A DNA stretch of 53,308 nt from Deltaproteobacteria bacterium (GCA_019313245.1 JAFDBP010000040.1:1-53308), one strand, 5' to 3'; shown: positions 2-18,200, numbered from the stretch's first letter. The notes: generated by a model not told the origin, from the sequence alone. Translations and numbers: made by a program.

Positions 2-1894
2 ATGAACCACCTCTGGCGCCAGGGCACCGGCGCGTTCCAGCTCGAGAGCATCGACGGAATGCTCGAGGGGGGCTTCCTCACGGACCTTCAGGATCGAACG
101 CGCTCGACTTCGAGCGGTTCGGAGTTCAACAGGGTAGAGTTGTCCCAGCTTCTGCACCTGAACACATTTGGATACATCTATCACCCCCGATTTCTCACGT
201 TCGACACCGGACTCAAGCTCGAAGCGATTCAGGGCCTGTCCGGACAGAGCGATACGCGGTTCCTGTGGGGTGGCGACTTTCGAATCAACTTCCTGGAGAA
301 CCATCGCAACAGCCTCTCGCTTTTCGGCACAGTACTCGACTCGGAGCAGTCGCCACCTTTCTCGGAGACCTACGACATCACGAACCAGATATTCGGAGCC
401 ACCTTCTTCCAGAAATGGGGCTGGATTCCCTTCGACCTCACGTATAGGCACGCCAGAAGGAAGGGTGGCGCAGGCAATCAGCTCGATGACAAGTCGGACA
501 AGGTGATCTTCGACGGTCGCTATTCGATCGGCGAGCGATCCGATGGAAGAATCGGGTATGACCTCGCCTACGAGGAAATTCAAGATCACGATCTTCGCAG
601 GCAGAACCTGATCGCGACCAACGTGTCCTATTTTGGCGACGGTGTCGACAAGGAGTTGAGAACCGACCTGCGGCTTTTCGAGGAGCGCGACGGCCAGAAG
701 CGTAAAACCGCCAATGGGCGGACGGCCTTCGATTGGCGGCACACCGATACCTTCCGGACGCGCTACGTATTCAACGCACGTTACAGTGATTTCGACGTCC
801 AGGACTCGACCAACCTGAACGGTCGGTTCTTTCTCATGCATCGGCTGTACGAGAGCCTGAAAACGGATCTCGAACTCTACGGAGAATACGAGGACTCCAG
901 CTTTCGCAGGCGAGACGAGTTTGGCGGCATTCTTTCCGCGAATTACCTCAAGCGGCTCGGCGATTGGGGGCGTCTCAACATCGGCGTAGCCCCGCGCACC
1001 TCGATGATCTACAACCGTCTGGAGGAGGATACGGCGTTCGTTTTCGACGAGCGCCACGTCATGGTCGGGCTTCAGCCGGTGCTGTTGAGGCAACCGGACA
1101 TCATCGTTACCAGCATCGTGGTGACAGATGAAACTGGATCGGTCGTGTACGATGAAGGGCCGGCAGGAGACTACATCGTCAACCAGACCGGAGGTGGCAT
1201 CCAGACCGAGCTGGTGCGCACTCCCATCAGCACCATCGGAGACGGGCAACTCGTCCTCGTGGATTACGAGTTCGAGTTGATCGGCGACAACGACACGCTC
1301 CAGACGGGTGTTGCCGTCCATTCCTCCTTGTCGTTCCTGGATTATTGGAGGGTGTTCGGGCGTTACGACAATCAGGATTATCACGTGATCTCGGGAGACG
1401 AAGATCGCCTCCGCTTCAATGACTTCGATCGTTACCTGGCCGGTCTGGAGTTCAGCCGGAAGTGGTTCACCGCGAAGGGAGAATATGAGGAGAACGACGC
1501 GACCTTCGGGTCCTTCCGGGGGTTCGCCGGGATGGTTGCGCTCTACACGGGCGGCATGCGGTCTTGGAACGCTCACGCCACTGCGGATTTCGCCCACAGA
1601 GACCACACGGATGACGTAGGCGAAAAGGTGAATCGCTTTTCGCTTTCAGGAGGTACGAGCAAGCGGTTCTTCAAATGGGGGATGCTGGAGGCCGAAGCAA
1701 GTTGGATGAGGGCGCGCTGGAGCGGACAGTCGAGCGAGGCGAACGACGTCGACGCTCTGCGCGTCAAGCTGAAATACACGTGGTGGTATGAGAATTTCGA
1801 GGTCAAGTTGGAGACTGGATTCGCTCAGCTCCTGCGTCCAACCGAAGACCGCAGCGTGTTCAGATTCGATCTCCGGGCGCGTCGTGTATTCTAG
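2..1894 (+). CDS. Outer-membrane beta-barrel protein (putative porin of a porin-cytochrome/nanowire export complex), probably 5'-truncated by the window edge
   Basis: 630-aa ORF of alternating polar/aromatic beta-strand segments ending in an aromatic beta-signal-like motif (FRFDLRARRVF). No signal peptide is visible, so the true start is likely upstream. First gene of a run with an NHL protein and a multiheme cytochrome. Confidence 0.75.
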   Translation: MNHLWRQGTGAFQLESIDGMLEGGFLTDLQDRTRSTSSGSEFNRVELSQLLHLNTFGYIYHPRFLTFDTGLKLEAIQGLSGQSDTRFLWGGDFRINFLENHRNSLSLFGTVLDSEQSPPFSETYDITNQIFGATFFQKWGWIPFDLTYRHARRKGGAGNQLDDKSDKVIFDGRYSIGERSDGRIGYDLAYEEIQDHDLRRQNLIATNVSYFGDGVDKELRTDLRLFEERDGQKRKTANGRTAFDWRHTDTFRTRYVFNARYSDFDVQDSTNLNGRFFLMHRLYESLKTDLELYGEYEDSSFRRRDEFGGILSANYLKRLGDWGRLNIGVAPRTSMIYNRLEEDTAFVFDERHVMVGLQPVLLRQPDIIVTSIVVTDETGSVVYDEGPAGDYIVNQTGGGIQTELVRTPISTIGDGQLVLVDYEFELIGDNDTLQTGVAVHSSLSFLDYWRVFGRYDNQDYHVISGDEDRLRFNDFDRYLAGLEFSRKWFTAKGEYEENDATFGSFRGFAGMVALYTGGMRSWNAHATADFAHRDHTDDVGEKVNRFSLSGGTSKRFFKWGMLEAEASWMRARWSGQSSEANDVDALRVKLKYTWWYENFEVKLETGFAQLLRPTEDRSVFRFDLRARRVF

Positions 1895-1901
1895 GAGCGC
1901 A

Positions 1902-2978
1902 ATGTCGGTGCTGAAATGCGGACGATCGCGGGAGCTTGTCGCCTCTGCATTTCGGAGGCTCGGCATTTTCGCAGCCATTGCCACAGCACTGGCGTGCGCG
2001 GTGTCGCCGCTCCCGCCGCCGAACTGGAACCATCCCGAAATCGCGTTGTCGTGGCCCGAGGCCCCGGAACCCGCTCGGATCGAGTACATGGGAGTCCTGC
2101 GCAACCCGGCCGACCTGGGCCGCAAACCCGGTTGGTTCGAACGGGTCAAGAACGCGGTTTTTGGCACGGAGCCGAAGTCGTTGCTGAGGCCGACCGCCGT
2201 TGCCAGGAATGCGGCGGGGGTTCTGGCCGTGGCCGATCCCGGCCTTTCGGTCGTCCACCTATTCGATCTCGATCGAAGGGAGTACAGCCAGATCGGTGAG
2301 CAGAGCGCGTCGTTTCTGCGCTCGCCCATCGGCGTCGCGGTCGACGACTCCGGGAGCATCTACGTAGCGGATTCGGTGTTGGGCAGGGTCTTCGTCTTCG
2401 ATGCCAGCCGAGATCTCGTCGCCGAACTGGGAGAGGGCGAGCTGACTCGTCCGGTAGGCGTCGCGCTCGACCCCAGTCAGGAGCACCTCTACGTCGTCGA
2501 TACGATCGAATGTGAGGTGGTCGCGTTCGATCTTTCTTCCGGGCGCGCGGTCAACCGCTTCGGGCGGCGAGGGGTGGGGCCCACCGAGTTCAACGCTCCG
2601 ACTTATGTCGCGGTGGCGCGCGATGGGTCGATCAGCGTCTCGGACTCGCTGAACTTTCGGATTCAGCGTTTTCGCCCGGACGGTACGCCAATCGCTTCGT
2701 TTGGGCTGCCCGGGGATGGGGCGGGGCACTTCGCCCGCCCGAAGGGGGTTGCCATCGACACCGAAGGGCGTATCTACGTGGTCGATGCGGGCTTCGAGAA
2801 CATCCAAATCTTCGATCCGGATGGAGTGTTGCTTCTTCCATTCGCCGGACCGGGGACGGGTCCGGGCCAGTTTTCACTCCCCGGTGGCCTCTTCATCGAT
2901 TCAACGAACACCATCTGGGTTGCCGATGCGTTCAATCGGCGGATTCAGGTGTTTCGGCTGGTGGAACACGCGCCATGA
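1902..2978 (+). CDS. NHL-repeat six-bladed beta-propeller lipoprotein
   Basis: AGGAG (1893-1897) precedes ATG 1902. Lipobox-like TALAC. Repeated P-x-G-V-A-V-D...I-Y-V-A-D...R-I/V-Q-V-F NHL motifs. Overlaps the next gene at ATGA. Confidence 0.88.
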   Translation: MSVLKCGRSRELVASAFRRLGIFAAIATALACAVSPLPPPNWNHPEIALSWPEAPEPARIEYMGVLRNPADLGRKPGWFERVKNAVFGTEPKSLLRPTAVARNAAGVLAVADPGLSVVHLFDLDRREYSQIGEQSASFLRSPIGVAVDDSGSIYVADSVLGRVFVFDASRDLVAELGEGELTRPVGVALDPSQEHLYVVDTIECEVVAFDLSSGRAVNRFGRRGVGPTEFNAPTYVAVARDGSISVSDSLNFRIQRFRPDGTPIASFGLPGDGAGHFARPKGVAIDTEGRIYVVDAGFENIQIFDPDGVLLLPFAGPGTGPGQFSLPGGLFIDSTNTIWVADAFNRRIQVFRLVEHAP

Positions 2979-4657
2979 AGATTCACTTTCTCATCACATT
3001 GTTTGCCCTACTGGCCTTGGCGCTGCCGCATTCGGCCGACGCGAAGGTGCGAGGCACGAAGCACGACCTGTCGGGCCGCAGCGCGGGTGACGGCATGGAC
3101 CAGATCTGCTTCTTCTGTCACACACCTCACACCGTGTTGCCGGCGACGCCGGCCTGGAGTCGAGCGCAATCGACAATCATCTACACGCCCTATTGGAGTC
3201 CGACGTTGGAGGCGACCGTCGGGCAGCCCACGGGTTCGTCGAAGATCTGCCTGAGCTGCCACGATGGCACCATCGCCAGGGCGTCCGCGCCGGATCCCAC
3301 CAAAGCTCGTGGTCCGCGCATGGGTTTTTTCGGGCTTTCGCAACGGGCGAATCTCACTTCTGACCTTTCCGACGATCATCCAATTTCCTTCATCTATGAC
3401 TCCGCGCTGGCTCTGGAAGATCGCGAGTTGGTGGATCCGGCGCTGTTGCCGAACGAGATCCTTCTCGATGCGAATGACGAGATGCAGTGCACGAGTTGCC
3501 ACGACCCCCACGCTTCCAGCTATCCGAAATTTCTGGCGATGAGCAATGCGTATTCGGAGCTCTGCACCGCGTGCCACGACAAGCAGGGTTGGGAGCAATC
3601 GGCCCACTCCACATCGCCGGCCGGATGGAACGGATCGGGAACGAATCCGTGGCCCTACTCGAGTGAGACTTCGGTCGCCGCGAACGGGTGCGCCAACTGT
3701 CACACCGCTCACGGTGCTGGCATCGCGGAGTCGCTTCTGGTGTTTCCGAGGGAGGAGGACAATTGTTTTTCGTGCCACGACGGGAGCACTGCCGATACCA
3801 ATGTTCTGGCTGAGTTTCGCAAGAGTTTTCGCCATCCCGTGGAATCTTCTTTCGGTTCTCACGTGGCGACAGAAGCTCCCTTTGCGATGCCACGACACGT
3901 GGAGTGCCAGGACTGTCACAATCCCCACGCGGCATTCCAGGGCGAGGCCGCGGCGCCCGACATACCCGCATCGCTGAGCGGCGTTTCGGGAGTCGGGGCT
4001 TCGGGGACACCAGTCGAAATCGCACGTTACGAATACGAAGTCTGCTTTCGCTGCCATGCCGATGGGCCGGACGTCCCGTCACCCTACATCGAGAGACAGA
4101 TCCTCGAGCCGAACATTCGCCTCAAGATGGACATCCGAAACCCCTCGTACCACCCCGTGGTGGCTCAGGGGCAGAATGTCGACGTCCCGAGCTTGATCTA
4201 CCCGCTGCGAGAGACGTCGATGATCTATTGCAGTGATTGCCATTCCGGAAGTGCTGGGTCGGCGCAATTCGGTATTCGCGGGCCGCACGGATCCGATTGG
4301 CCATTTCTGCTCGAACAGCCGTACAGCGTTGCGGACGGAACCATCGAGAGCTACCAGGCATACGCCTTGTGTTACAAGTGTCACGATCGAAATCTGCTGC
4401 TCTCCGACGGTCCGACCGGAATACACAACAAGCATGTTGTCGAAGAAGACACGACCTGCTCGGTTTGTCACGACCCCCACGGAATCAGCGCCACCCAGGG
4501 CAACGCGACCAACAATTCCCACCTCATCAACTTCGACATCAGCATCGTCGATCGCGATCCGAATACGGGGATGTTGATGTTCGAGGACATGGGCTCGAAC
4601 CACGGTCAGTGTTATCTCTCATGTCACGGAACGGTGCACAGCCCGGCGGAGTACTGA
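2975..4657 (+). CDS. Secreted 12-heme c-type cytochrome with an N-terminal OmcE-like tetraheme module
   Basis: Sec signal peptide ending in ADA. 11 CxxCH motifs plus one CxxxCH (CYLSCH). The first four hemes follow KHDLS..ICxxCHTPH..SKxCLSCHDG..DDHPISF..CxSCHxxH..LCxxCHDK. Confidence 0.92.
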   Translation: MKIHFLITLFALLALALPHSADAKVRGTKHDLSGRSAGDGMDQICFFCHTPHTVLPATPAWSRAQSTIIYTPYWSPTLEATVGQPTGSSKICLSCHDGTIARASAPDPTKARGPRMGFFGLSQRANLTSDLSDDHPISFIYDSALALEDRELVDPALLPNEILLDANDEMQCTSCHDPHASSYPKFLAMSNAYSELCTACHDKQGWEQSAHSTSPAGWNGSGTNPWPYSSETSVAANGCANCHTAHGAGIAESLLVFPREEDNCFSCHDGSTADTNVLAEFRKSFRHPVESSFGSHVATEAPFAMPRHVECQDCHNPHAAFQGEAAAPDIPASLSGVSGVGASGTPVEIARYEYEVCFRCHADGPDVPSPYIERQILEPNIRLKMDIRNPSYHPVVAQGQNVDVPSLIYPLRETSMIYCSDCHSGSAGSAQFGIRGPHGSDWPFLLEQPYSVADGTIESYQAYALCYKCHDRNLLLSDGPTGIHNKHVVEEDTTCSVCHDPHGISATQGNATNNSHLINFDISIVDRDPNTGMLMFEDMGSNHGQCYLSCHGTVHSPAEY

Positions 4658-4659
4658 TC

Positions 4660-5193
4660 TCACTCGTCCCGAACGAAGAAGTAGGAGACATCCCTCTCTT
4701 CGCCGAATAGCGGGAGTCGGGTCGTCACGAACATGTGATCGGAATCGCTGAACGTGTAGGTGAGCACGGACGGGGAGCGCTCGTGTGTATTCGCGCCGAT
4801 GGCCGCTCGGCGCGCGACCCACGAATGGCCCGAAGATCGGATCGTGAGTGTATTCGCGTTTTCTGAGACGAGTTCCCAGCGGTCGTGGAATGGGCCGCCG
4901 AGCGGGCTCGTGATCTCGTAATGTCCGTCGGAGTGGAAGGTTTCGCGAATCGACGAGAAGGTTTCGCGAAACGCCTCGTCAAAATTCTCCAGTTCGCGAG
5001 GTGAGATCCGCGCGACCTCTTCTCTCTGAGCCGCCCTGTCGATGATCCAACTCCCGATGATTAGCGGTGCCTCGGAACTCGCGAGCGCTCGCTTCGCAGA
5101 CGCATCGAAGGTCCGCTCGGGAGAGTCGCTTTCGCTACAAGCGGCGAGCGCCAGGAGCACCGCGACGGATGCGGCGGAGATGATCATTCGCAT
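4660..5193 (-). CDS. Hypothetical lipoprotein
   Basis: 177-aa ORF with a signal peptide and lipobox LAAC. The mature part is beta-rich (IIGSW start, lipocalin-like). GGGAG upstream. Confidence 0.65.
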   Translation of the reverse strand: MRMIISAASVAVLLALAACSESDSPERTFDASAKRALASSEAPLIIGSWIIDRAAQREEVARISPRELENFDEAFRETFSSIRETFHSDGHYEITSPLGGPFHDRWELVSENANTLTIRSSGHSWVARRAAIGANTHERSPSVLTYTFSDSDHMFVTTRLPLFGEERDVSYFFVRDE

Positions 5194-5526
5194 GGGACTC
5201 TCCCAGATCCGGAAGTCGTTCCGAACAGGCCCGCACTGGTGCCGGATTCGCGGTCGGCCGGCTCGCTTGGCTGGGAACTCGATCGGATTCCGACGTTACC
5301 CCAGCCTCCGGTATCCGTTTGTGCAGCGATCGGCGCGGATTGAGCCCAGAGTCGAGCCATGTAGCAAAATGCCCCATTTGTGCCGCCAGAGCGCCGTAGA
5401 ACGCTGTTTGGGCTTCGCTGCGAGAAGGGGGCCGCGAATTGCGTCAACGGTGAGTCAAATCACACTATGGATCGATCGATCAGACGCAACTTGGCCGCTA
5501 AGCCCTTCTAGATCGGATTTGTTTAT

Positions 5527-5542
5527 TGGAATGTTTTTTGCA
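5527..5542 (+). promoter_or_regulatory. Putative sigma-54 (-24/-12) promoter for the NHL-cytochrome-resB-ccsA operon
   Basis: TGGAATGTTTTTTGCA with GG (5528-5529) and GC (5540-5541) at the canonical spacing, in an AT-rich intergenic patch. Confidence 0.65.
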
Positions 5543-5620
5543 CAATCTCCCGCCTAGATGAAGCCCGGTCAGCCACGGATCTCGAGGTGGAGACGCGGGG
5601 CACCCGGGGGGAGCGCGACC

Positions 5621-6733
5621 ATGAGGCGAGTCAGCGCCAATCGACCGCTGCGGCGCGTCCGGTTTTCACGTCGGGCGACCCTTCTCGGTGCGACCTGCGC
5701 GGCGCTGTTCGCTCTTGCGGTTCCCGAGTTGGCCGGGGCGGCGGCGCTGAGCGACCAAAATCGAGACGGCGTGATCGACGTCGCCGACATCGTTCTCTTC
5801 AGCCAGTCCGAACTCGGACAGGATTGGCAGACCGTCGACTGGTGCGAGTGGCTGCAGACCCCGCGTAGGCGAGAGCGGCACCTCCAACAGCTGCTCGATT
5901 TCATCGACGAGTATTTTCGCTGCGATCAGGGCAATCCCTTTGCGATCCGCGATGCCAACGTTCATCCGACCCGCCTGACCTGGAGCGCGGACGCGAAGAA
6001 GATCTTCGTAACCGATTCCAAGATCGGCTCGGTCTTCATCTATGACTCGCTGGCGACGCCGATCGGAGAACTCAAGGATCTTGCCAAGCCGCTGGGTGTC
6101 GCCGTGAACTCGCAGGGCGACATCTACGTGGGGGACAACCATTCCAACGCGGTAGAGGTCTACAACTCCGAGGGTTCGCGGATCGCGACCATCGGCGCCG
6201 CGACGCTCAAGATGCCCAACGATCTGGCCTTCGACCAGAACGGCCGCCTCTACGTCGCTGACAGCAAGCGGAATCTGGTCGAGGTCTTCGACCCCGCGAG
6301 CGGCGCGAGCCTGCGGACGTTTGGCAGCGGCGAACTGCGCTTTCCGTCCGCGCTGGCGATTTCCGGTCAGGAGGTCTTTGTCGCCGACCAGTCGAACTTC
6401 CTCGTCAGGGTCTACGATCTCCAGGGAAACCTGCTTCGCTCGTTCGGCGGCAAGGTCACCCAGGGGTTCATGAACTACAACTGGCATGGCAAGTTCGCCC
6501 GCCTCCAGAGCCTCGCCGTCGACTCCGCGGGGCGCCTCCACGCCCTGGATAGCCACATGGGCGTGATCCAGATTCTGAGTGCCGCCGACGGCAGCTTCAT
6601 CGCTTCCTACGGGTCGAACGGGTCGGCGCCCGGAGAACTCGACCTGCCCCTGGACATCGACATCAACCAGTACGGAGAAGCGGCAGTGGCCAACACCCGC
6701 AACCGGCGGGTGGAGCTGCTCACGCCGCCCTAG
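5621..6733 (+). CDS. Secreted NHL-repeat beta-propeller with an N-terminal dockerin/EF-hand-like motif
   Basis: GGGGGAG before ATG 5621 (the ORF track start at 5558 is probably too early). Arg-rich signal peptide, DQNRDGVIDVAD motif, then NHL repeats. Confidence 0.82.
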   Translation: MRRVSANRPLRRVRFSRRATLLGATCAALFALAVPELAGAAALSDQNRDGVIDVADIVLFSQSELGQDWQTVDWCEWLQTPRRRERHLQQLLDFIDEYFRCDQGNPFAIRDANVHPTRLTWSADAKKIFVTDSKIGSVFIYDSLATPIGELKDLAKPLGVAVNSQGDIYVGDNHSNAVEVYNSEGSRIATIGAATLKMPNDLAFDQNGRLYVADSKRNLVEVFDPASGASLRTFGSGELRFPSALAISGQEVFVADQSNFLVRVYDLQGNLLRSFGGKVTQGFMNYNWHGKFARLQSLAVDSAGRLHALDSHMGVIQILSAADGSFIASYGSNGSAPGELDLPLDIDINQYGEAAVANTRNRRVELLTPP

Positions 6734-6750
6734 GAGGGAATCGGTACGCC

Positions 6751-9700
6751 ATGGGATTCGAAGCGCGCTCGCATACGCGATCCACCAGCGACGGGTGGCG
6801 TGGTGTGCGCGCAGCGCGAGTGTTCCCAGCGCTCGTTTGCTTCGGGCTGCTACTCCTGGTCGCTCCGAGTGCCTTCGCCGCACAGGAGCGCATGCCTCTC
6901 GACTCGATTGCTGCCGACGGCTGCAATTGGAACAGCTGCACGGTCGCGAATCTCGACGAAGACCCGGATGGACCCGGGACGGATTGGGCGACGGCGTTCG
7001 ACAACAACACCAATCACGACGGCCACTTCGGCTTCGGAACCCCCAGTCAGCCCCTGGCGACAGGTGCCGATCTCCAGGAGTTCCGCGCGTCGGTTCGCAA
7101 GAATTCCAGCTGTGGCACGGGCACGCCCAGCGCCCGGATCGAGCTGTGGGAGAACGGCGCGCTGGTGCGAGCGGGTACCGACACTTCTGTCACGGCCGCC
7201 AACTCGTGTACCCAGGGCAGCGACTGCCAAGTCCTCAGCTTCACCTGGAACGCGACGGAGGTCACCGCGGCCGCTAACGTCGAGGTGAAGATCTTCGGCC
7301 TCAAGGCGGGCGGCAGCCCGTCGACCCGCTGTGCGGTGGATCTCGGGGCGGTCGAGTGGAACGCCGAGGTCAGTGCCGCGACGTTGCCCACGCTATCAGC
7401 GCCGACGAGTCCGTTCGCGACGATCGATACCGGTACGGCCACGCTCGGCGCGACGATCGACACCAACGGCGGCGGAACGATCAGCGAGTACGGGACGGTA
7501 TGGGGCACCTCGCCCAACCCGACCGGCAGCGTGCTCGCCGCGGGCACCGACAATCCCGCCATGCCGCACACCTTCTCGCACAGTCGGACGATCACACAGC
7601 TTCCCGGTACGTTCATCTACTTCCGAGGTTACGCGGATAACGGTGTCGGCCGCGCCTACTCGCCCGACGGCTCCTTCTACCTCGAGCCCAATCCGCCCGA
7701 CCCGGGCGTCAGCTTCACGAACGTCACCGACAATGGCATGCGAATCAGCTGGACACCGCCGGGAACCGGCGCCGGCGACGGGGCGATCGTCGTGCTGAAG
7801 CAGGGGGCGACGGTGGATTCCGATCCGTCGGACGGCGTGGCGCACGTCGCGGATACCGTTTTCGGAAACGGCGCCGAGCTCGGGACCGGGAACTTCGTGG
7901 TCTTTCGGACCTCGGGCACGCAGGTCGACGTGACGGGTCTATCGCCCAGCACACAGTACGCCGTTGCTGTCTACACCTACGCGGGCCCGACGGCGCCGGC
8001 GATCAACTACCAGCAGGACTCTCCGGCGACCGGAACCCAGACCACCACCGGCCCGACGCCGACGCCAACGGCGACACCGACCGCCACACCGACGGCGACG
8101 CCGACTGGGACGCCGACTGCCACGCCGACCACGACACCGACCCCAACGGCCACGCCGACGGCGACGCCCACGGGTACACCTACGGCCACGCCGACCGCTA
8201 CGCCGACGTCTACGCCGACTGGGACTCCGAGCGCCACGCCGACCGCCACGCCGACGTCTACACCCACCGGGACTCCGACCGCAACGCCTACTGCTACGCC
8301 GACCGCGGCGCCATCTCAGCCGACTCGGGCTCGGTTCGAATCCACCCGGGTGGCCGAGACGGAGTTGGTTCTTTCGTGGCGACTCGGCGTGAGTGACGGC
8401 GTCATCGTTCTGATGCGATCTGGTCTCGCCGTCGACGCGGACCCGGTGGACGGAACCACGTATTCAGCCAATTCCGTGTTCGGCAATGGCTCGCAAATCG
8501 GAACGGGCAACTACGTCGTCTATATCGGTAGCGGGACGGAGCAGACGATTACCGGCATCGCGCCCGATACCACCTATCATGTGGCGATCTACACGTATAC
8601 CGGATCCGGGCCCGGCATCGATTACATCCAACTCGACCCGAGCCGCGGCCAATCGGGTCACAACGCCTCGCACGGCATCGACTGCGGCGTCTGCCACTTC
8701 GGCACCGGGACTTCCCACGGAAACTTCACGGTGCCGCGGGATGCCGATCAGCAGGCGGTCTGCGAGACCTGCCACAACGACACCGGGCCGGCGTCGGGCA
8801 AGTTGAATTTTGCACTCCACAGCGGCACGAAATACAACGCCGACGTGGATTGCGGCTCGTGCCACGAAATGCACAACAATTACGACTTCACGACGACCGA
8901 CACCCACACCGGCGGCGTGACGGCTGCAAACATCGTGTGGATCCGCTCGGATACCGCGAAGTACGTCGCGGGGGCGCTCGAGCCCGCGCTGTATCAGAGC
9001 AGCACGGGTTCCGAGGCCTGGGACGACAGCAACGCGCCGTGGAACGGCTTGTGCCAGACCTGCCATCAGAACACCGACTGGCACCGCAACGACAACAGCC
9101 TCGGGGCGGGTAGCCACGACCACGAGATGCCCACCGACAATTGCCAGGGATGCCATCCCCACACGGACGGTTTCCGCGGTGCCGGCGGCGACTGCTTGGC
9201 CTGCCACAAGCAGCAGAAGGAGATCTCGACCAGCCCGGGCACCTTCCGCCGCCAGATCACTGAAAGCAGCGCGGGGGCCGGGGACGGCGAGTTCAGCACC
9301 GGCTTCACCTCGCACCACGTCAACGACGGCAGCGGTTCACAGGTGGTGACGCTGTGGGATTGCGTGGTCTGCCACGCCGAGGGCAACGCAATTACGGGTG
9401 AAGCGGATGATAATTATCACAAGAAGGACGGCGTGCAGCTCAAGGATACGGATACGGGCGCGGTGTACAGCGACTGGTCGGGTCTGACGCCGGCCCAGCG
9501 ATCGAGCTTCTGTCTCAGCTGCCACGACTCGGACGGCGCGACCATCATCACGGGTCGCACCGATCCCGATCCGGACGCGACCACGAATCCGCTGAATCCG
9601 TTCAACGACGGCGTCACCAACTCTCACGAGCCAGACGGCTTCGATGGCACTCCGGCGCCCCACTCGCGCGGGACCGTGCTGGACGTCGAGAGTCAGTTCG

Positions 9701-10422
9701 ACACCCAGAACGTCAGCCACCACGGAGTGCTGGGCCCCGCCTACGTCTACGCAACCGACTGCGTGGCGGCCGGAGATCCGCACTCGTGTTGCACGGGATC
9801 TGGAACCGGACCCACTTGCGGGCTCCCCTTCGGATCCATCGTCAACGCCGCCATCCAGGGCGTGCGGACCGACCTCGATTGGAACTCGGTCATCGACTGC
9901 GAGGATTGCCACATCGGCCCGCCCGCGTTCGGCGGCGGTTCGGTCGTGCTGGGCGGCCACGGAACGCCGACAGCTCGCTACATGCTGAGGGACCACAATG
10001 GCGCCGAGCAGGTGACGGCACCGGTCGACGCGTCGACGGTCATCTGTCGCCGTTGCCACGACCCCGAATCTTCGAGCATCTATCCCTACCACACGCGCAG
10101 CGCGCACATGACCAACCTGCTGAACATCTTCGGCGTCGCCTGCATCGACTGTCACGGTGGCGGTGAGTGGGGGGGCATTCACGGCGTCGATGCCGTGGTT
10201 ACCGATGACGATGGCGGCGGCAGCTACAACCCCAACGTCTTTACCTACGGCAGTTCGCTCGACCTGATCCAGAACTGGACTGATTGGACGGACGGCGGCA
10301 TTTCCTGCTCGGCAGTGGCGAGTAAGACGCAGATCAACGACTGCACGCAGCACGGCGCGCAGAGCTACGCCCGCGACCCCCGGCGAGACGATGCGCCACA
10401 GCGCATCTACAGGCTTCCCTGA
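6751..10422 (+). CDS. Large modular extracellular multiheme cytochrome c (Cys-rich N-domain, FN3-like domains, Thr/Pro linker, 11 CxxCH)
   Basis: AGGAGG RBS and a signal peptide ending in AFA. Two homologous FN3-like domains flank an 84-aa TPTx repeat. The C-terminal half has 11 CxxCH motifs and many extra His. Confidence 0.9.
8053..8304 (+). repeat. 12-bp-period coding tandem repeat encoding ([12 protein letters not shown])n, about 20 units
   Basis: Translation [23 protein letters not shown]...TPT. Synonymous codons vary between units. Confidence 0.95.
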
Positions 10423-10496
10423 ATCTGAAGACGACACGGGTATACTGACGGGGATGCTGCAGCGCCGCCTGGACGCCCGGAGATTCGCCTCACGAG

Positions 10497-11888
10497 ATGA
10501 CTTCTAGCCGTCTCGGGAATTGGCTGCGGCGCCAGCACGTGCGCCTCGCATCGGGGCGCCTGACCGCCTGGCTGCTGGCGGTCCTCGTATTCGTTCTCGG
10601 CGTCTATCTGTTCATTCCGCAAGATCGACAGGTGAGCGCGCTCGCAATCGAGGGTTGGGTCGAACAGAAGGGGCTGCTGGGGCGGGTGTGTCACGCGCTC
10701 GGGTTCAACTCCATCTTGCACTCGCCGCTGTTCTGGGGCACGTGCGCGCTGATGTTCGTCAATCTGGTGCTGTGTATGATCCGGCGGATTCGCTCCACGC
10801 TGAGCCTGTTTCGCTTCCCAGAGCGGCCGCCCCAGGCTTCGCTGGCCTGGCAGCGCCGCGAGATCGCTGGGCCGACCCTCGCGGAGGAAGGCATCGCCGA
10901 GCTACTCGGCAAGCGGGGGTTTCGCACGCTCGTCGACGACGGCAGGGTCTACGGGCTGCGCGGGCGATTCGCAATTGCCGGGCACTGGATCTTTTATCTG
11001 GGTCTGCTCGCCATGTTGGTCGTCGGGACTCTTGTGGCGCTGGCCCCGAAGCCCTTTCGCGGCCTGGTCGGCGTGGGAGACGGTGAGCCATTCGCACTGC
11101 ATCGCTCGCCCTTCCTCTCGACCCGCGATGCCGTTGCGCCCGAGCTTCCGGATCTGCGCTTCCAGGTGGAAGAGATCGAGACGCTGACGGAAGGAACGGA
11201 GACGGTTCACTTCGAAGCCCACGTCACGACGCCCGAGGGCGATCGGGGAATCATCGGTGTCAACCGGCCGTTCCGGCAGACGCCCTACCAGGTGATGGTT
11301 CACGGCTTCGGCTACATGGCGGGCTGGGCGATCACCGACTCGGGCGGCCGAATGGTCAACGGAGCCTGGGTGAAGCTGATTCCCTTTCCGCTGCTGCGCT
11401 CGGATACTTTTTCCATCGGCAGAGGAGAGAGCACGGTGCGCGTGCGTCTTTACCCCGATCACTACATGGAGGGAGAAACGCATCAGAGTCGAAGTTACGA
11501 ACTGCAAAACCCCCGATACACCGCGCGCATCTTCTGGCGCGGTTCGAAGATATACGACGGATTGCTCGAGCCGGGGCAGCGGGTGCCGCTCGAAGATGGC
11601 CTGGAATTCTTCTTCCTCCCCGAGATTCGGCGCTACGCGACGCTCGAAGTCATCCAGGAACGCGGCTATGTGGCGGTTTTCGCTTGCCTGGGGGTCATGA
11701 TCCTAGGTCTCGCGATCCGCTACTTTAGGATCCGCAAAGAGGTGCTGGTGCAGCGCAGCGAGGGGTCGATGGAAGTCTTTGGGCGCGGCGAGATCTTCGA
11801 GAGCCTCTTCGCCGAAGAATTCGACCAATTGGTCGACGCGCTGGCGAGTGCGAGTTTGCGCTCCGAGGATCCGAGGGGGGCCGCTTGA
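10497..11888 (+). CDS. resB: Cytochrome c biogenesis protein ResB/CcsB-like (System II)
   Basis: HSPLFW..LMFVNLVLCMIRR motif, three N-terminal TM segments, a large periplasmic domain and a C-terminal TM. Translationally coupled to ccsA. Confidence 0.8.
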   Translation: MTSSRLGNWLRRQHVRLASGRLTAWLLAVLVFVLGVYLFIPQDRQVSALAIEGWVEQKGLLGRVCHALGFNSILHSPLFWGTCALMFVNLVLCMIRRIRSTLSLFRFPERPPQASLAWQRREIAGPTLAEEGIAELLGKRGFRTLVDDGRVYGLRGRFAIAGHWIFYLGLLAMLVVGTLVALAPKPFRGLVGVGDGEPFALHRSPFLSTRDAVAPELPDLRFQVEEIETLTEGTETVHFEAHVTTPEGDRGIIGVNRPFRQTPYQVMVHGFGYMAGWAITDSGGRMVNGAWVKLIPFPLLRSDTFSIGRGESTVRVRLYPDHYMEGETHQSRSYELQNPRYTARIFWRGSKIYDGLLEPGQRVPLEDGLEFFFLPEIRRYATLEVIQERGYVAVFACLGVMILGLAIRYFRIRKEVLVQRSEGSMEVFGRGEIFESLFAEEFDQLVDALASASLRSEDPRGAA

Positions 11889-12784
11889 GCCCGGTCGAGT
11901 ACGCAGCCTTCTGGACCACCGTCTTCGCGTACGCGCTGGGAACGGCGCTGTCGCTTTCGGGCATCGTCTTCAATCGCGAGCGCTGGCTCACAGCTGCGGG
12001 CGCCGTCTGCACGGTCGGGCTTCTCGCCCATCTCGTCGCGGTTGGCGCGCGGATCGAATTCACCGGGCACCTGCCGGTGGCGAGCCGCTACGAAAATGTC
12101 CTGACCGGATCGGCGGTCGTGATGCTCTTCAGCCTCATCACCATTTTGCGCCGGCGTAGCCTGAAGCCGATGGTCGTGTTTGTGGCGCCGTTTGCATTGT
12201 TGATGCTGGGCTATGCGCTGCTCGAGCAGCCCCGCTACACGACCATGTCGCTCGTCCTCGACAACCTCTGGATGTTCATCCACATCTTCTTCGCCTGGCT
12301 GGCCTACGGCGCCTACTCGGTAGCGGCGGCGCTCGGCGTGGTCTACCTGCTGCGCAGCCGCGCGAATGCGAATCAACTGCCCCCGTTGCTCCAGCGCCTG
12401 CCGGAGCCGAACGTGCTCGACGATCTGATCTTCCGCTCGATCATCTTCGGTTTCATCGGCCACGTGGTGATGATCTCGACGGGCGCGATCTGGGCGCGCG
12501 ATCTCTGGGGCAACTACTGGAACTGGGATCCGGTGGAAACCTGGAGCCTGCTCTCCGGCCTGCTCTACGGGCTCTGGATCCACCTGCGGGTGGGGTTGCA
12601 CTGGCGCGGGCGCCGCATGGCCTGGCTCGCCGTCGGCTCTCTACTGACTGTGGTGTTCGCGTTCTGGGGCACGAACATGTTCGGCGGGACGAGCCACTCG
12701 CTCGACGACCTTCGACTCAAGGCGCCCGGCGAAGAGGCCGGCCTCGCCCCGGAGCCTTCGATCCCCGAGCCGCCCGCGAATTGA
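11885..12784 (+). CDS. ccsA: Cytochrome c synthase CcsA/ResC (System II)
   Basis: WWD motif TGAIWARDLWGNYWNWDPVETW. Conserved His in WMFIH, WIHLR and TSHS. The TTG start overlaps the resB stop. Confidence 0.93.
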   Translation: MSPVEYAAFWTTVFAYALGTALSLSGIVFNRERWLTAAGAVCTVGLLAHLVAVGARIEFTGHLPVASRYENVLTGSAVVMLFSLITILRRRSLKPMVVFVAPFALLMLGYALLEQPRYTTMSLVLDNLWMFIHIFFAWLAYGAYSVAAALGVVYLLRSRANANQLPPLLQRLPEPNVLDDLIFRSIIFGFIGHVVMISTGAIWARDLWGNYWNWDPVETWSLLSGLLYGLWIHLRVGLHWRGRRMAWLAVGSLLTVVFAFWGTNMFGGTSHSLDDLRLKAPGEEAGLAPEPSIPEPPAN

Positions 12785-12880
12785 CGCTACATGCGGCGTG
12801 TGCCACGGTCGGCGTTCGATCGGGCCGGCCGGAAGCCCGCTGGTAAATAGTCCTACTGCGAGAGAGGCGCGATCGCTCCC

Positions 12881-13231
12881 ATGGCAATCCTCGTGATGTT
12901 CAGCAACTACTTTCACGATCTCGCGACCGCGATCTTTGCGGTGAGCGCGGTGACCGCCTACCTCCTGCAGCGTTCGCTCGCGATGCAAACCGCACCCGCG
13001 TCCCTTCAGCCCGTGGTTCGCGGAATCCAACGCATGGGCTACTACTCGCTCGCGTGGACGCTCGTGTTCGGCGCCTTTCGCAGCATGACCTACCGCGAGT
13101 ACGAGTGGGTAGAGGCCGCAGGTCGTGATCAGGTGCCCGCGTTGGTGGTGAAGCACATCTTTCTAGCCGCTCTGGTCATCACCGGTGTGATCTTCCTCTA
13201 CAAGCTTCGCCGGCTACGGGTGGCGGGGTAG
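12881..13231 (+). CDS. Small three-TM membrane protein with intramembrane His residues (CopD-like topology), function unknown
   Basis: GAGAGG RBS. Three hydrophobic helices, with NYFHDLA and VVKHIFL motifs. Confidence 0.7.
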   Translation: MAILVMFSNYFHDLATAIFAVSAVTAYLLQRSLAMQTAPASLQPVVRGIQRMGYYSLAWTLVFGAFRSMTYREYEWVEAAGRDQVPALVVKHIFLAALVITGVIFLYKLRRLRVAG

Positions 13232-13392
13232 CCCACTGACCGAGCTGCTGAACTCGCCGGCCGGGAAGGCTGGCCTGCGAGAGCGATTCCTGCAAATACC
13301 GGCGCTCATCCTCCCCCAGCATTTCGCAACGCGAGCGGGCTGCGGATCGATCTGAGGTCTTCGGCTAAAGCGTTGCGGCGTTGCGCTCCCGC

Positions 13393-14949
13393 CTAGCGGG
13401 ATGTCTGGTTCGCCGCGTCGCCGACGGTCTCTCCGGGCTCCTCGTCGTCACCGTCCAGCTTGACCGAGTAGGGGCAGAGCTTCATGGCCTCCTCCTCGAT
13501 TCCGACGATGCCGATCCGCTTGAGCAGGGCCCGGATTTCCGGGGGCATGCCCTTGCCGGAGGCCATCTTCTTGCGGACGAAGGAACTCCCCATGATGAGC
13601 TTCATCGCGCGCAGCATGTAGTCGCGGCGCGCTGAATCTCGGTCGGTGAAGACCGACACGGCTTTGTGGGTGTAGAACGAGCGGTAACAGTCGACGATCG
13701 CGTTGTCGACGTCCGCGAGGCTCATCGCTTTCGGGCGGATGACCGGGTCGATCAGGTTGTACTTCCGGTAGTCGTGCGACGCGATGTGCGGCTCCATCTC
13801 CTTCCAGAGTTGGGTGTAGGGCCAGGGCGTGATTGCGAGGTAGTGGGCGTTGTCGGGATCGTAGGTCTTCGAGAGTTCGAGGGTGCGCTTGATACTCTCG
13901 GGCGTTTCGTCGGGAAAGCCGAGCACGAAGGAGGTCTCGCTGACGATTCCGTGCTGGTAGAGCAACCGGAGCGCCTGGATGCCGCTCTCGACGTTCGCGT
14001 CCTTGTTGATCAGGTCGAGCGTCTCTTGGTCCGTGGCCTCGATGCCGACGTACACGTGGGCGATCCCGGCGGCGACGTATTTGTCGAGAATCGGCTCGTC
14101 GCGCACGACATCTCCGACGCGGGTTTCGAGCAGCAGTTTCTGTCCGAGATCCCGCTCGATCACCAGGTCGAGGATGCTCTCCCAGCGGCGCGCATCGGGC
14201 GTGGGGTACTCGTCGGAGAGCAGGATCACATCGACGTCGTGTTCGCGACGCAGAAATTCGAGTTCGTCGACCACGCACTCGGGCGATCGCCCGCGCCAGC
14301 TGCGGTTCCAGAACTTCTGCTGTGAGCAGAACGTGCAGCCGTGCATGCAGCCGCGCGAAGTGCTGATCGCGCCCAACCGCGACCCCGGATAGACGAAGTA
14401 GGTGTAGGTCGGCCAATCCAGCAGGTCCCACGCGAGCGGCAGTCCGTCGAGGCTCGGGTGCCACGGGCGCGTGGGATTGGATTCCGGGGCGCCGTCTTTG
14501 CGATGTGCGACGCCGCGCACCTTTGCGACGTCGCCGCCATCACGCAGCGCGGTCAAAAGCTCTGTGAAGCTGTGCTCGCCCTCGCCGCGAATGACGAAGT
14601 CGACCGGGTGACCCGGCTCTTCGAGAACCCGGCGCCACATGAAGGAGGCGTGGACGCCGCCCATTGCGGTGCGGGCGCCGAGCGCCTTGGCGACCTTCAT
14701 GATTTCCAGCCCATCGGGATAGGTGGCGGTGATGCAGGAGGTCGCGACGATGTCGGGCTCTTTCGTCTCGATGGCGCGCGCGATGTCATCGTGTGTCGCG
14801 TCGAGGCTCATCGCGTCGTAGATCTCGCACTCGAATCCCGCCTCGCGCGCGCTGCCGGCGAGGTAGACCAGGTGGAGCGGAATCCAGCGCCCCGCCACCT
14901 CGACGACTCCACAGTGGTACGGCGGCGTGATGAATAGAACCTTGGTCAT
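13393..14949 (-). CDS. Cobalamin (B12)-binding radical SAM enzyme (class B / BchE-like)
   Basis: N-terminal B12-binding-type domain (KVLFITPP..PLHLVYLAG..GGVHAS), SRGCMHGCTFC CxxxCxxC motif, GIEA and GFPDET motifs. Confidence 0.9.
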   Translation of the reverse strand: MTKVLFITPPYHCGVVEVAGRWIPLHLVYLAGSAREAGFECEIYDAMSLDATHDDIARAIETKEPDIVATSCITATYPDGLEIMKVAKALGARTAMGGVHASFMWRRVLEEPGHPVDFVIRGEGEHSFTELLTALRDGGDVAKVRGVAHRKDGAPESNPTRPWHPSLDGLPLAWDLLDWPTYTYFVYPGSRLGAISTSRGCMHGCTFCSQQKFWNRSWRGRSPECVVDELEFLRREHDVDVILLSDEYPTPDARRWESILDLVIERDLGQKLLLETRVGDVVRDEPILDKYVAAGIAHVYVGIEATDQETLDLINKDANVESGIQALRLLYQHGIVSETSFVLGFPDETPESIKRTLELSKTYDPDNAHYLAITPWPYTQLWKEMEPHIASHDYRKYNLIDPVIRPKAMSLADVDNAIVDCYRSFYTHKAVSVFTDRDSARRDYMLRAMKLIMGSSFVRKKMASGKGMPPEIRALLKRIGIVGIEEEAMKLCPYSVKLDGDDEEPGETVGDAANQTSR

Positions 14950-15244: not shown

Positions 15245-15260
15245 CGGCACGTCCTTTGCA
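15245..15260 (+). promoter_or_regulatory. Putative sigma-54 (-24/-12) promoter for the FG-GAP/PEP-CTERM gene
   Basis: CGGCACGTCCTTTGCA matches GGCACG-N4-TTGCA. GG at 15246-15247, GC at 15258-15259. Confidence 0.7.
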
Positions 15261-15273
15261 CAGGTTGGTAGAC

Positions 15274-18200
15274 ATGCGAAATCTCCTGGGTTCAGTCGAA
15301 TTTGTGCGTTCGATTTGCGCGGGCATTGCGAGCCCGCGCGGCTTCTCGCGCGCGACCAACCGAGACTTCTCGCGCGATGGCCGGCGATCCCGGCCGAATG
15401 CCCTGCGAGGACTGCTGGTGGCACTCGTCCTCGCGATCCCCGCAGCGACGGTTCACGGCAGCGCTCCGGAGGCGAAGCGCGGCGTTTCGGTAATCGCGCC
15501 CGAGATTGGTAATTCGGCGCAAGTGCTAGGTGCGGATGCCGCTTGGATGGGGCGCATCCAACACCACCTGGCTGAGCGAGAGTACGCGGTGGGGCCGAAT
15601 CTCCACGGTCTGCAAGCGCCGAATCGCGCGCACAATCTGCGCACCTATTTCGACGCCACGGGCATCCAGGTCGTGGATCGCACGGCGGTGAGCAGCCCCG
15701 ATCTGCTCGCGCTGCGACTCGCGAGTATCGGCCGGGGCGCCCAGTCGCTTCCGGTCGCTCCGGGCGAGGTGACGAGCGCGGGTGCGCGCGTCGAGATCCG
15801 GCGACCCCACATCGTGGAGTGGTACCTGAACTCCGCCGCGGGTCTCGAGCACGGATTCACGCTGGAGCGACGGCCCGCGGGTGACGGGTCGCTCGCGGTC
15901 GAACTCGCCGTGCGCGGCGCACGCGCTGTCCTCGACGGCGAGCGGATCGTGTTCCTGAGCGCAACGGGGCGGCAGCTCGAGTACGGGAAGTTGGCGGTGC
16001 TCGACGCCGAGGGCGCGCGACTGGAGGCGCGCTTCGAGGTGCCGGATCCCGGGCGTGTGCGGCTGATCGTCGACGATCGAGCGGCCAGCTACCCGATCGA
16101 GATCGATCCCTTGCTCGCGGCGAACGATGCGACCGCATCGAGAGCAAAGAGTGTCGCGGAGCTCGTCCGAGAGCGGCGGCTGCGCCGCCGCGGCCAGAAG
16201 AGCTCGGTCAGCTACGCGGCGGTGGCCGCCGAAGAAGCCGCGGCGTTCGCGCGCCTGGAAGCTGCGATGGCCTTCGCGAATGGGAATCCCGTGACGGCGG
16301 ATGCGCAGCTCGAGTCGAACCAGGCGAGTGCGGCGCTGGGCACGAGCGTCGCGGGTGCGGGCGACGTAAACGGCGACGGTTACGCGGACGTGATCGTGGG
16401 CGCGCCGAGCTACGACGCCGGAGAGGCCGACGAGGGCGCGGCGTTCGTGTTCCTGGGCAGCGCTTCGGGTGTCCCCGACGGAAACCCCGTGACGGCGGAT
16501 GCGCAGCTCGAGTCGAACCAGGGGAGCGCGGCGCTGGGCACGAGCGTCGCGGGAGCGGGCGACGTGAACGGCGACGGTTACGCCGACGTGATCGTGGGCG
16601 CGCCGAGCTACGACGCCGGAGAGGCCGACGAGGGCGCGGCGTTCGTGTTCCTGGGCGGTGCTTCGGGCGTCGCCGATGGCAACCCCTCGACGGCGGATGC
16701 ACAGCTGGAATCGGACCAGGCGAGCGCGGCGTTGGGCACGAGCGTTGCGGGCGCGGGTGACGTCGATGCCGATGGTTACGCAGATGTGATCGCGGGCGCC
16801 CCGGGTTACGACGACGTAGAAGCCGAGGAAGGCGCGGCCTTCGTGTTCCTGGGTAGCGCGTCGGGTGTCGGCGATGGGGATCCGCTGACCGCAGATGCAC
16901 AGCTGGAGTCGAACCAGGCGAACGCAGCGCTAGGCACGAGCGTCGCGGGAGCCGGCGACGTCAATGGGGATGGCTTTGGCGATGTGATCGTCGGTGCGCC
17001 CGGTTACGACGACCTTGAGGCCGAGGAAGGTGCGGCATTCGTGTTTCTGGGCAGCGAGTCGGGCATCGCGGACGGGAATCCGGGAACGGCGGCAACCCAG
17101 CTCGAATCCAATCAGGCGAGTGCGCAGTTGGGCGGGAGTGTCTCTGCCGCGGGCGACGTCGACGGCGACGGCTACGGCGACGTAATTGTCGGCGCGCGCT
17201 ACTACAGCTCCGGTGCGAGTTGGGGCGAAGGGGCCGCGCTCGTATTTCTCGGCGGCGTTGCGGGCATCGCCGATGGAAATCCGGCGACGGCTGCCGTGGT
17301 CATCAAGGTCGATGGGGACAAGGTGTCGTTCGGCGCGAGCGTGTCCACCGCGGGCGACGCAAACGGCGACGGCTACGCGGACGTGATCGTCGGCGCGCCG
17401 TTGTACGACTCGGGAGATCTCGCCGAAGGGGCCGCATTTCTGTTCCTCGGCAGCGCGTCGGGCGTCACGAGCCAGAGCGTGGCTTCGGCGGCGGCGCGTT
17501 TCGAATCGGATCAGGCGGATGCTGAGTTGGGAGGCTGCGTCGCCAGTGCGGGCGACGTGAATGGCGATGGCTATGCGGATCTGATCGTAGGGGCCGCTCT
17601 TTACGACGCGGGCGAAATCGACGAGGGCGCGGCCTTCGTGTTCCTGGGCGGCGCGTCAGCCATCGCGGGCGGCGATCCCGCTGCTGCGGACGCCCAACTC
17701 GAGTCCAATCAGGCGACCGCCTGGTTGGGGACGAGCGTCTCGGGCGCCGGCGACCTCAATGGCGATGGCTATGCGGACGTGATCGTCGGTGCGCCCACCT
17801 ACGATGCGGGCGAGGTCGACGAGGGCGCTGCATTCGTGTTCCTCGGCGGCGCATCGGGCATCGCCGATGGCAACCCCGCCACTGCGGACACTCAGCTCGA
17901 GGGAGACCAGGCGGGTGCGTGGTTCGGCTTCAGCGTCTCCGGAGCCGGAGACGTAAACGGCGACGGTTACGCCGACGTGATCGTCGGCGCCTCCGACTAT
18001 TCGGCAGGCCAGACCTACGAGGGGGCCGCTTTCATCTATCTGGGCAGCGCGACGGGGATCGCCGATGGCGATCCGGTGACTGCGGATACGCAATTGGAGT
18101 CGAACCAGGCGGACGCCTATCTCGGCTGGAGCGTTTCCGCGGCGGGCGATGTGAATGGCGATGGCTATGGAGACGTGATCGTCGGATCTGCGGCCTATTC

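Follow-up and report, generated by a model that had tools for sequence, protein, structure and literature searches.

The window analysed here is the whole of a 53,308-bp contig (C40; GCA_019313245.1 JAFDBP010000040.1:1-53308) of a metagenome-assembled genome (MAG) labelled Deltaproteobacteria bacterium, and its subject is the gene at positions 6751-10422 on the plus strand, a stop-free, uninterrupted open reading frame (ORF) of 1223 amino acids (aa). The product is a secreted 11-heme electron carrier with a long, cofactor-free arm of binding-type domains, its export being predicted from the signal peptide. We propose, with moderate confidence, that this protein is a surface cytochrome docked on an NHL propeller, that it carries an adhesive arm of variable length, and that it works within an electron-transfer cluster. 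The proposal draws on computed domain architecture, conservation, synteny, gene fusions, a complex model that passed its controls and the diderm status of the genome. From the N-terminus, the parts of the protein are as follows.

6751..6879 (+), residues 1-43: signal peptide, assigned by sequence (Arg-rich n-region, hydrophobic core at 18-36, A-F-A then A-Q)
6880..7374 (+), residues 44-208: head domain, a predicted jelly-roll beta sandwich with 6 Cys, of the galactose-binding/CBM32-like fold class
7387..7686 (+), residues ~210-314: FN3-like sandwich module, suggested by language-model features
7693..8034 (+), residues ~315-428: FN3-A, with a Pfam fn3 stretch at 315-412
8041..8316 (+), residues 431-522 (92 aa): Thr/Pro linker, a T/P/A/S/G run with its repeat core at 8053-8306
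8332..8649 (+), residues ~528-633: FN3-B, the second Pfam fn3 stretch
8659..10422 (+), residues 637-1223 plus stop codon: undecaheme c-type cytochrome domain with 11 CxxCH motifs

An initial annotation of the window had given the same architecture (signal peptide, beta domains, two FN3 domains, linker and 11-heme domain), and the ORF, the Pfam matches and the motif counts bear it out. It had also stated that the protein lacks a lipobox or membrane anchor; indeed, residues 18-36, within the signal peptide, are the sole hydrophobic segment of the 1223 aa, and inspection revealed no lipobox pattern. We prefer the long ORF, starting at 6751, over a start at Met48 because the signal peptide is in frame in orthologs P0002, P0004 and P0006 and because a GGAGG sequence is located 13 nucleotides (nt) 5' of the ATG at 6751. 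One public record of the protein does begin at Met48 (window 6892), which would drop the signal peptide.

The 11-heme domain and its family

The 11 CxxCH motifs lie at residues 645-1131 of the 1223-aa protein, which has no CxxCK and no longer-spaced heme motif. Conservation was counted over 33 of 46 alignment rows, those covering at least 85% of the heme domain: all 11 motifs are retained, each in 97-100% of these homologs, and 22 further, non-motif His residues are at least 80% conserved, in both cases far beyond chance. There is also a conserved Cys pair (1186/1198). Judging by the alignment, the 22 extra His are enough for bis-His ligation of all 11 hemes. With 11 conserved CxxCH, 22 conserved His and no CxxCK, the domain fits a bis-His electron-transfer wire rather than a catalytic heme. 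Pfam profiles match above their cut-offs (Cytochrome_C7, PF14522, 48.4 bits against 24.8; the Cytochrom_c3_2 class, PF14537, 30.2 bits against 25), and the CxxCH set, the profile match, the signal-peptide-like segment and the adjoining ResB/CcsA genes together mark the protein as a multiheme c-type cytochrome.

A single-sequence search of the Protein Data Bank (PDB) matched only the low-complexity linker (for example, to circumsporozoite protein), and a profile search gave local c7-type matches, the best to 3ov0 (E 5.5e-12 over 80 positions); beyond such local matches, neither PDB search found a solved structure related to the heme domain. The AlphaFold2 model of the domain, made without hemes, is poor, with a mean predicted local distance difference test score (pLDDT) of 52.5 and a predicted template modelling score (pTM) of 0.47; a wide VIA-align search with this model returned three chains at Z of at least 2, the best at 2.1, and is uninformative on fold novelty.

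A word-indexed protein search scored 7999 candidates, of which 1094 reached E<=0.001. The first 39 of those listed (P0002-P0040) cover at least 37% of the query, and the remainder cover at most 24%, mostly in the low-complexity linker. Among the 39 relatives, 28 have 11 CxxCH motifs, seven have 10, one has 9, one partial protein has 8, and two N-terminal fragments have none. With the heme domain alone, an exhaustive HMMER scan matched 399 representative proteins at E<=1e-3, including 55 at E<=1e-30, and the domain aligns at 26-42% identity with proteins from Sideroxydans, Thiodiazotropha and uncultured Gammaproteobacteria that have 13 to 30 hemes. Relatives are found in lineages of Fe(III) reducers and of Fe(II) oxidisers alike. 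What precedes the hemes is far less constant: the first heme falls anywhere from residue 44 to residue 1068 across the 39 relatives, some of which carry three to five pairs of sandwich and FN3 modules. One (P0039) has a different, weakly similar head (E 0.003), another (P0033) has HYDIN-like Ig modules according to precomputed Pfam labels, and a 578-aa protein in locus L002, 47% identical, has no arm at all. By sequence comparison, then, the arm is the variable part of the family, ranging from no beta module to at least 10.

The closest locus (L001), in a Myxococcales-labelled MAG, encodes a 1457-aa ortholog that is 71% identical over the heme domain. Two further orthologs, P0002 (1263 aa) and P0004 (1237 aa), are full length with the same order of parts at 60-61% identity, and the partial P0003 and P0005 have the same architecture at 59-61% identity on independent contigs. 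The initial annotation had named an assembly chimera, unsupported by reads, as an outcome that would undo its interpretation. We ruled out a chimera because orthologs with this architecture, 59-61% identical, occur on four independent contigs and because public contigs bridge both linker junctions. This read support consists of contigs from four public runs, no single piece of which covers all of 7400-9000; many short pieces of other organisms stack on the repeat, and only the bridging pieces from runs X1 and X4 were used. The X1 piece, 434 nt long, spans 7853-8298; it has two substitutions and lacks one 12-nt (TPTx) unit at 8097, a difference that may be a length polymorphism or uncertainty in assembling the repeat; X1 is possibly the source sample and so is not independent. 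From X4, a contig covers 8240-8390 with zero differences.

The NHL propeller as a candidate docking partner

Immediately upstream of the cytochrome gene, ending 17 nt before it, is a gene for an NHL beta-propeller (5558-6733). An NHL homolog is present in 27 of 79 related loci. In 23 of them it shares the strand of the cytochrome gene and precedes the first heme-domain match by 0-5000 nt, a distance of no more than 220 nt in 11 loci. The loci with an NHL gene come from MAGs labelled Myxococcales, Sideroxydans, Thiodiazotropha, Sedimenticolaceae, Gemmatimonadota, Planctomycetota and others. In Planctomycetota/Phycisphaerae, three single ORFs (L020:2045-4688, L035:8480-11797 and L040:8423-11281) fuse the two proteins, with an N-terminal propeller followed, stop-free, by 12-15 hemes related to the heme domain studied here; a fourth ORF examined for fusion, in L067, has the propeller and no heme motif. 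Finally, complex prediction for the heme domain and the propeller scored 0.61 (median of three runs), against 0.01 for the best control. Of 157 solved complexes, 116 attain this mark, as do 2 of 215 mismatched pairs; these counts hold only roughly, as our own alignments were used. Contact agreement between the runs is at least 74%, with the partner at pLDDT of at least 80, and the predicted contact joins one face of the propeller to residues 12-53 of the heme domain (641-682 of the protein), a stretch that takes in the first two hemes and the loop following heme 2. Given the conserved adjacency, the three fusions and the passing complex model, the propeller is the likely docking partner of the cytochrome, and a partner protein of this kind is probably the answer to the missing anchor. 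The jelly-roll head would be the free end, since in the model it is the end with hemes 1 and 2, adjacent to FN3-B, that sits on the propeller.

We also note an acidic motif of the type D-x-N-x-D-G-x-I-D after the signal peptide of the NHL protein (residues ~65-85) and of its counterpart at L001:6244-7362. The motif resembles a dockerin or EF-hand calcium loop; a Pfam scan of the NHL protein at 5558-6733 gave no dockerin.

The arm, and alternatives to surface docking

The head is modelled by AlphaFold2 at pLDDT 89-98 over model residues 1-160. Compared with solved chains by VIA-align, it is closest to IFT25 (Z 10.1; root-mean-square deviation 2.9, 122 aligned), allantoicase (Z 9.9) and the carbohydrate-binding module (CBM) CBM32 of AlyQ (Z 9.2); several CBM32 chains score 8.1-9.2 and many carbohydrate-binding modules score 8-9, on a scale where a Z of 7-8 is the typical best score even for models without a true match. 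Because the top matches are IFT25 and allantoicase, and because the scores are near that typical best, we assign the modelled head to the galactose-binding/CBM32/discoidin jelly rolls as a fold class only. By Foldseek, the combination of this head with FN3 recurs in MAM-Ig-FN ectodomains and phage tail proteins; the Pfam scan gave no family for the head. Matches to the head occur in 18 proteins: six members of the cytochrome family, three RHS/DUF6531 proteins, one protein with CotH and a cupredoxin, one with cohesin, and seven without a Pfam family. In other proteins it is sometimes internal and repeated, as expected of a mobile module, and its company of RHS, CotH and cohesin suggests a role in extracellular binding.

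Behind the head, the sandwich module (~213-312) has no Pfam match and is poorly modelled (pLDDT 32-43). The nearest ESM Atlas clusters carry fn3/Pur_ac_phosph_N (score 0.96-0.97), which serves as a lead only; in relatives the module is repeated one to five times and always stands before an FN3. The Pfam fn3 profile (PF00041) matches two stretches with 46.5 bits (cut-off 25), and these, FN3-A and FN3-B, share 45% identity across 106 aa (E 2e-31), confirming the earlier view of them as paralogs. FN3-B is the FN3 that most relatives retain beside the heme domain; its GTGN-type signature is present in most of the short relatives, those with the first heme at residue 91-240.

The longest run made purely of T, P, A, S and G is residues 431-522 (92 aa), the protein's sole Thr/Pro run, which precedes all 11 hemes. 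At the DNA level, 8053-8306 is a tandem array with periods of 12, 36 and 48 that encodes 84 aa in ~21 TPTx units, in keeping with the 84 aa and roughly 20 units first described. No Thr/Pro-rich window was found in any of 182 relatives of the protein, and at this position P0002 and P0004 have a second FN3-like module of ~90 aa, nearly equal in length. From these alignments, the linker replaces an FN3-like module present in the closest orthologs and is not a family trait. In the same genome, 15 stop-to-stop frames have a 30-aa window of at least 70% T+P; one is the gene studied here, one looks spurious, and the other ~13 include FG-GAP, RCC1 and DUF7450 proteins and three paralogous tetraheme cytochromes, so that the run reads as this genome's generic linker. 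The idea in the initial annotation of a heme module joined to an adhesin-like arm is supported. Its Cys-paired beta domain of unknown type is indeed a beta domain with 6 Cys, for which a type is now available from a confidently modelled jelly roll (pLDDT >90), and its plain beta sandwich (~210-314) stands as a separate module, refined to FN3-like by the language-model lead.

The three leashed tetraheme cytochromes each have a (TPTA)n leash of 70-140 aa after the heme part. They lie elsewhere in the genome (G000), at the following positions.

C50:30682-31713 (-): leashed tetraheme cytochrome (L085), with a terminal P-E-P and hydrophobic tail, a weak PEP-CTERM match (NF038119, E 0.0013, below cut-off)
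C53:13653-15527 (+): leashed tetraheme cytochrome (L086), ending in DUF7450 repeats
C149:5784-7001 (+): leashed tetraheme cytochrome (L089)

The genome also has four exosortase matches.

We propose the following mechanism. The protein would be exported by Sec as an undecaheme c-type cytochrome of a diderm bacterium, and the adjoining ResB/CcsA System II would attach 11 hemes to its C-terminal 590 aa, yielding a bis-His electron wire. The N-terminal end of the heme domain (hemes 1-2, beside FN3-B) would dock on the co-encoded NHL propeller, which would keep the cytochrome on the cell surface close to an outer-membrane conduit formed by the beta-barrel-like protein and the 560-aa 11-heme cytochrome encoded upstream. 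The arm, which has no cofactor and is built from FN3-like modules plus a flexible (TPTA)n leash, with the CBM-like jelly-roll head at its tip, would set the reach and probably bind a surface, be it a polysaccharide matrix, another cell or a mineral coating. In this organism, one arm module would have been swapped for the lineage's standard Thr/Pro linker. In this scheme, we infer the crossing of the outer membrane, docking in vivo, the ligand of the head, glycosylation and the direction of electron flow.

Several observations weigh against this scheme. In the complex, the heme chain is at pLDDT 61-65 and was modelled without hemes, such that the interface rests on a weakly folded chain, and the NHL interface shows no enrichment of conserved residues (10 of 37 are at least 90% conserved, vs 72 of 272 elsewhere). 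A pattern check found no lipobox in the NHL protein of the window, and three of 11 aligned homologs have one. There is no NHL homolog in 52 of the 79 related loci, many of which are cut by contig ends. The CBM-like match of the head is generic, its Z of 8-10 being near the best expected without a match, and the 1223-aa protein has no recognised outer-membrane sorting signal. This last point, together with a Sec signal peptide as the only export signal, would also suit a periplasmic electron store or relay, in which the FN3 and jelly-roll modules make protein-protein contacts; many multiheme cytochromes of such clusters are described as periplasmic (PMC5566968, PMC10734462). We think a periplasmic location quite improbable, given that RHS, CotH and cohesin proteins also have the jelly-roll head, that this genome's Thr/Pro linkers occur in FG-GAP, RCC1 and DUF7450 proteins, and that four beta modules and a 92-aa linker could exceed the usual width of the periplasm.

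At the surface, the head could instead be fixed to the cell's own envelope or exopolysaccharide, leaving the heme module free on its leash to take up electrons from surface cytochromes and pass them on by tethered diffusion, as proposed for PgcA, which is described as stretching to 180 A (PMC11520253). The 92-aa flexible linker between head and heme module would permit this, (TPTA)n leashes are found on three tetraheme cytochromes of this genome, and the weakly PEP-CTERM-like tail of one of them, with the exosortases, would anchor the non-heme end. Nonetheless, the closest orthologs have a folded module in place of the leash, so flexibility is not conserved, and both the complex model and the three fusions put the partner on the heme module and not on the head; we therefore regard the reversed arrangement as unlikely. 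A further alternative, that the heme domain polymerises as a nanowire like OmcS, OmcE and OmcZ, with the arm decorating the fibre, seems to us very improbable. Polymerisation of extracellular undecahemes has been raised by the authors of the Uet work (10.1101/2022.05.06.490989). The heme domain does have a local profile match (E 1.4e-4, ~40 positions) to 7tfs_A ('Cytochrome c'), the OmcE filament, but the PDB searches gave no full-length similarity to any solved cytochrome, and an arm of 640 aa per subunit seems hard to pack. Lastly, and compatibly with any of these arrangements, the Thr/Pro repeat might be a metal-oxide-binding element and not a glycosylated spacer, given that the Pro/Thr stretches of PgcA are reported as the main drivers of its binding to Fe(III) oxide (PMC10570954). 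We consider this doubtful, since the same linker joins non-redox proteins (FG-GAP, RCC1, DUF7450) and is absent from all 182 relatives, as would fit a generic spacer, and since five TPR membrane proteins on the same contig, three of them with PMT_2, leave room for glycosylation.

Genomic setting and known systems

The cytochrome docked on its NHL propeller would belong to a larger unit. The genes from 1788 to 13231 are all on the plus strand with short gaps or overlaps, and together with the upstream barrel-like gene they form an operon-like electron-transfer cluster. The genome (3.88 Mb, 308 contigs, 84% complete, 3.5% contaminated) is that of a diderm, with three Omp85 and two secretin matches above cut-off. 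The other features of the window that we discuss are listed below.

2..1894 (+): beta-barrel-like protein at the contig edge, N-terminus probably truncated; ends R-R-V-F, no hydrophobic helix
1788..2978 (+): first NHL beta-propeller (Pfam NHL, E 4e-26)
2975..4657 (+): second 11-heme cytochrome, 560 aa, doubled-CXXCH type (11 CxxCH; Paired_CXXCH_1, E 9e-33)
5558..6733 (+): second NHL beta-propeller, the candidate partner (Pfam NHL, E 8e-23)
10497-11888 (+): ResB (Pfam ResB), System II cytochrome c maturation
11885-12784 (+): CcsA-type protein (Pfam Cytochrom_C_asm), System II cytochrome c maturation
12881-13231 (+): membrane protein, 116 aa
13393-14949 (-): B12-binding radical S-adenosylmethionine (SAM) enzyme, BchE family (TIGR02026, 367 bits, below the 481 cut-off)
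19554-21941 (-), 24802-26274 (+), 28630-30378 (-), 32253-34208 (+), 34263-36044 (-): five multi-pass membrane proteins with TPR
22121-22744: tetraheme cytochrome, possibly UetA-like, 12 kb from the 1223-aa cytochrome gene
26323-28629 (-), 36673-38412 (+): two sulfatase-family proteins, among the TPR membrane protein genes

The protein at 2..1894 matches no Pfam or NCBIfam family, and its barrel-like nature is suggested by composition and the terminal Phe. As the ORF of the first NHL gene overlaps this gene, its true start is probably later than 1788. The 560-aa cytochrome has an MtrC domain II/IV-like match in the Pfam scan and is, by sequence, a candidate conduit partner; we rejected it as a close paralog of the 1223-aa protein (best E 0.007). 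Its family is very large and uniform in length: a search with it matched 7603 of the 8000 candidates scored, and the matches listed are mostly 535-615 aa, with labels such as Binatia, Myxococcota, Nitrospiraceae, Planctomycetota and Calditrichaeota. Downstream, the ResB/CcsA pair (10497..12784) begins 75 nt after the cytochrome gene and scores 151.9 bits with NCBIfam TIGR03144, below the 187.6 cut-off. Besides NHL, homologs of window genes recur in the 79 related loci for CcsA (22 loci), ResB (19), the small membrane protein (15), the tetraheme cytochrome (13) and the B12 radical SAM enzyme (12). The last of these is 47-79% identical in 10 of its 12 loci and, in L002, is more conserved than the cytochrome (79% vs 47% identity). 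BchE acts on a tetrapyrrole, and so a role in modifying heme or the cytochrome is conceivable by analogy.

Three of the five TPR membrane proteins match PMT_2 (GT-C glycosyltransferase), and homologs of the first two occur in eight and seven of the 79 loci, respectively, mostly in Geobacteraceae; from their domains, the PMT_2/TPR proteins are candidate glycosylators of Thr-rich linkers. Between the BchE-like gene and these lies a gene for a 1439-aa protein (15256-19575, +) with 14 FG-GAP repeat matches (E 4e-101), for which no homolog was found in the 79 related loci. The genome is rich in cytochromes, with 34 stop-to-stop frames that have at least four CxxCH motifs. Frames of 26 and 16 hemes are adjacent (C234:26201-29516), and a pair of 11-heme frames on C104 that overlap (10145-12334 and 11443-14301) may be a single gene with a frameshift.

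On a broader and tentative view, which we think more doubtful than the docking itself, these proteins would constitute an undescribed and widespread 'adhesin-cytochrome' family, in which FN3 and an 11-heme wire sit on an NHL propeller, the arm is tuned module by module for contact distance, and at least four cytochromes of this lineage have Thr/Pro leashes. Tethered, flexible electron transfer has to date been demonstrated only in Geobacter PgcA; on this view it would be a design principle of general reach, and the conserved BchE-like radical SAM enzyme and a dedicated ResB/CcsA might specifically mature or modify the hemes of this family. Extracellular electron transfer drives the cycling of iron and sulfur in sediments, and most large environmental multiheme cytochromes are without assigned partners or geometry. 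The family described here is tractable, having a fixed 11-heme module, a predicted NHL docking partner and a non-redox arm that varies naturally in length. It opens to testing both the role of NHL propellers beside cytochromes, as in the Geobacter, Desulfovibrio, Tenderia and Gallionella clusters, and the question of how anchorless cytochromes stay at the cell surface. For the field, we see this as an incremental step and not a new principle.

Known surface cytochromes offer several points of comparison. MtrC and OmcA of Shewanella are surface decaheme lipoproteins on an outer-membrane conduit, with beta-sandwich domains interleaved with heme domains. The 1223-aa protein also has beta-sandwich domains, but these form a separate arm and there is no lipobox; its profile match to 4lmh_A is insignificant (E 0.019). 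In PCC3 systems, described as a porin, a 21-27-heme periplasmic cytochrome and a five-helix inner-membrane protein (PMC5566968, PMC10734462), the extracellular cytochromes are likewise large multiheme proteins of variable length. As described, however, those proteins lengthen by adding hemes, whereas the family studied here lengthens by adding non-heme modules; moreover, no frame in the window has more than 11 CxxCH motifs, and the gene scans found no porin and no five-helix inner-membrane protein. Closer in its domains is a Geoalkalibacter ferrihydriticus cytochrome, Ga0056053_03448, which has 24 hemes preceded by a pair of FN3 domains at the N-terminus, these being read as adhesion-related (PMC12016550). 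Both are N-terminal fusions of FN3 to a cytochrome, although the Geoalkalibacter protein has 24 hemes, and the available account of it describes no jelly-roll head or Thr/Pro linker.

In gene content, the nearest system is the uet cluster of 'Ca. Tenderia electrophaga', whose UetJ is an undecaheme protein with a signal peptide and is predicted to be extracellular (10.1101/2022.05.06.490989; PMC10734462). Genes for NHL propellers stand before that of UetJ and System II ccs genes after it, with a beta-barrel gene and a tetraheme cytochrome in the same module (10.1101/2022.05.06.490989). All those gene types are present in the window (11 CxxCH, signal peptide, flanking NHL and ccsA/ccsB), with UetJ compared by its published description only. 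That description gives UetJ no other domain, whereas the protein studied here has a 640-aa arm made up of a jelly roll, three FN3-type modules and a linker. Indeed, UetJ may correspond to the 560-aa neighbour instead, since Gallionella UetJ is labelled 'doubled CXXCH' (PMC10734462), which fits the neighbour (2975-4657) better. Among the 17 ORFs scanned (1-30378), there is no counterpart of UetB (a peptidyl-prolyl isomerase), UetD/E/G (triheme c7) or UetF (a cupredoxin), and no Tenderia or Gallionella name appears in the 79 loci kept or among the matches listed for the 1223-aa protein and its 560-aa neighbour. NHL genes beside cytochromes are thus already in print (10.1101/2022.05.06.490989; PMC12016550); our narrow literature searches found no description of this cytochrome family or of NHL-cytochrome fusions.

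For the leash, the precedent is PgcA (GSU1761) of Geobacter sulfurreducens, described as 'hemes on a string', an extracellular cytochrome with long Pro/Thr repeats and flexible tethering (PMC10570954; PMC11520253). We found no sequence relationship between the two proteins, and the likeness is one of design: each has Pro/Thr repeats within a cytochrome, as a tether proposed to extend its reach. They differ in what the repeats separate, which in the published descriptions of PgcA is three monoheme domains, and in the protein described here is two non-heme FN3 domains, with all 11 hemes in one compact domain.

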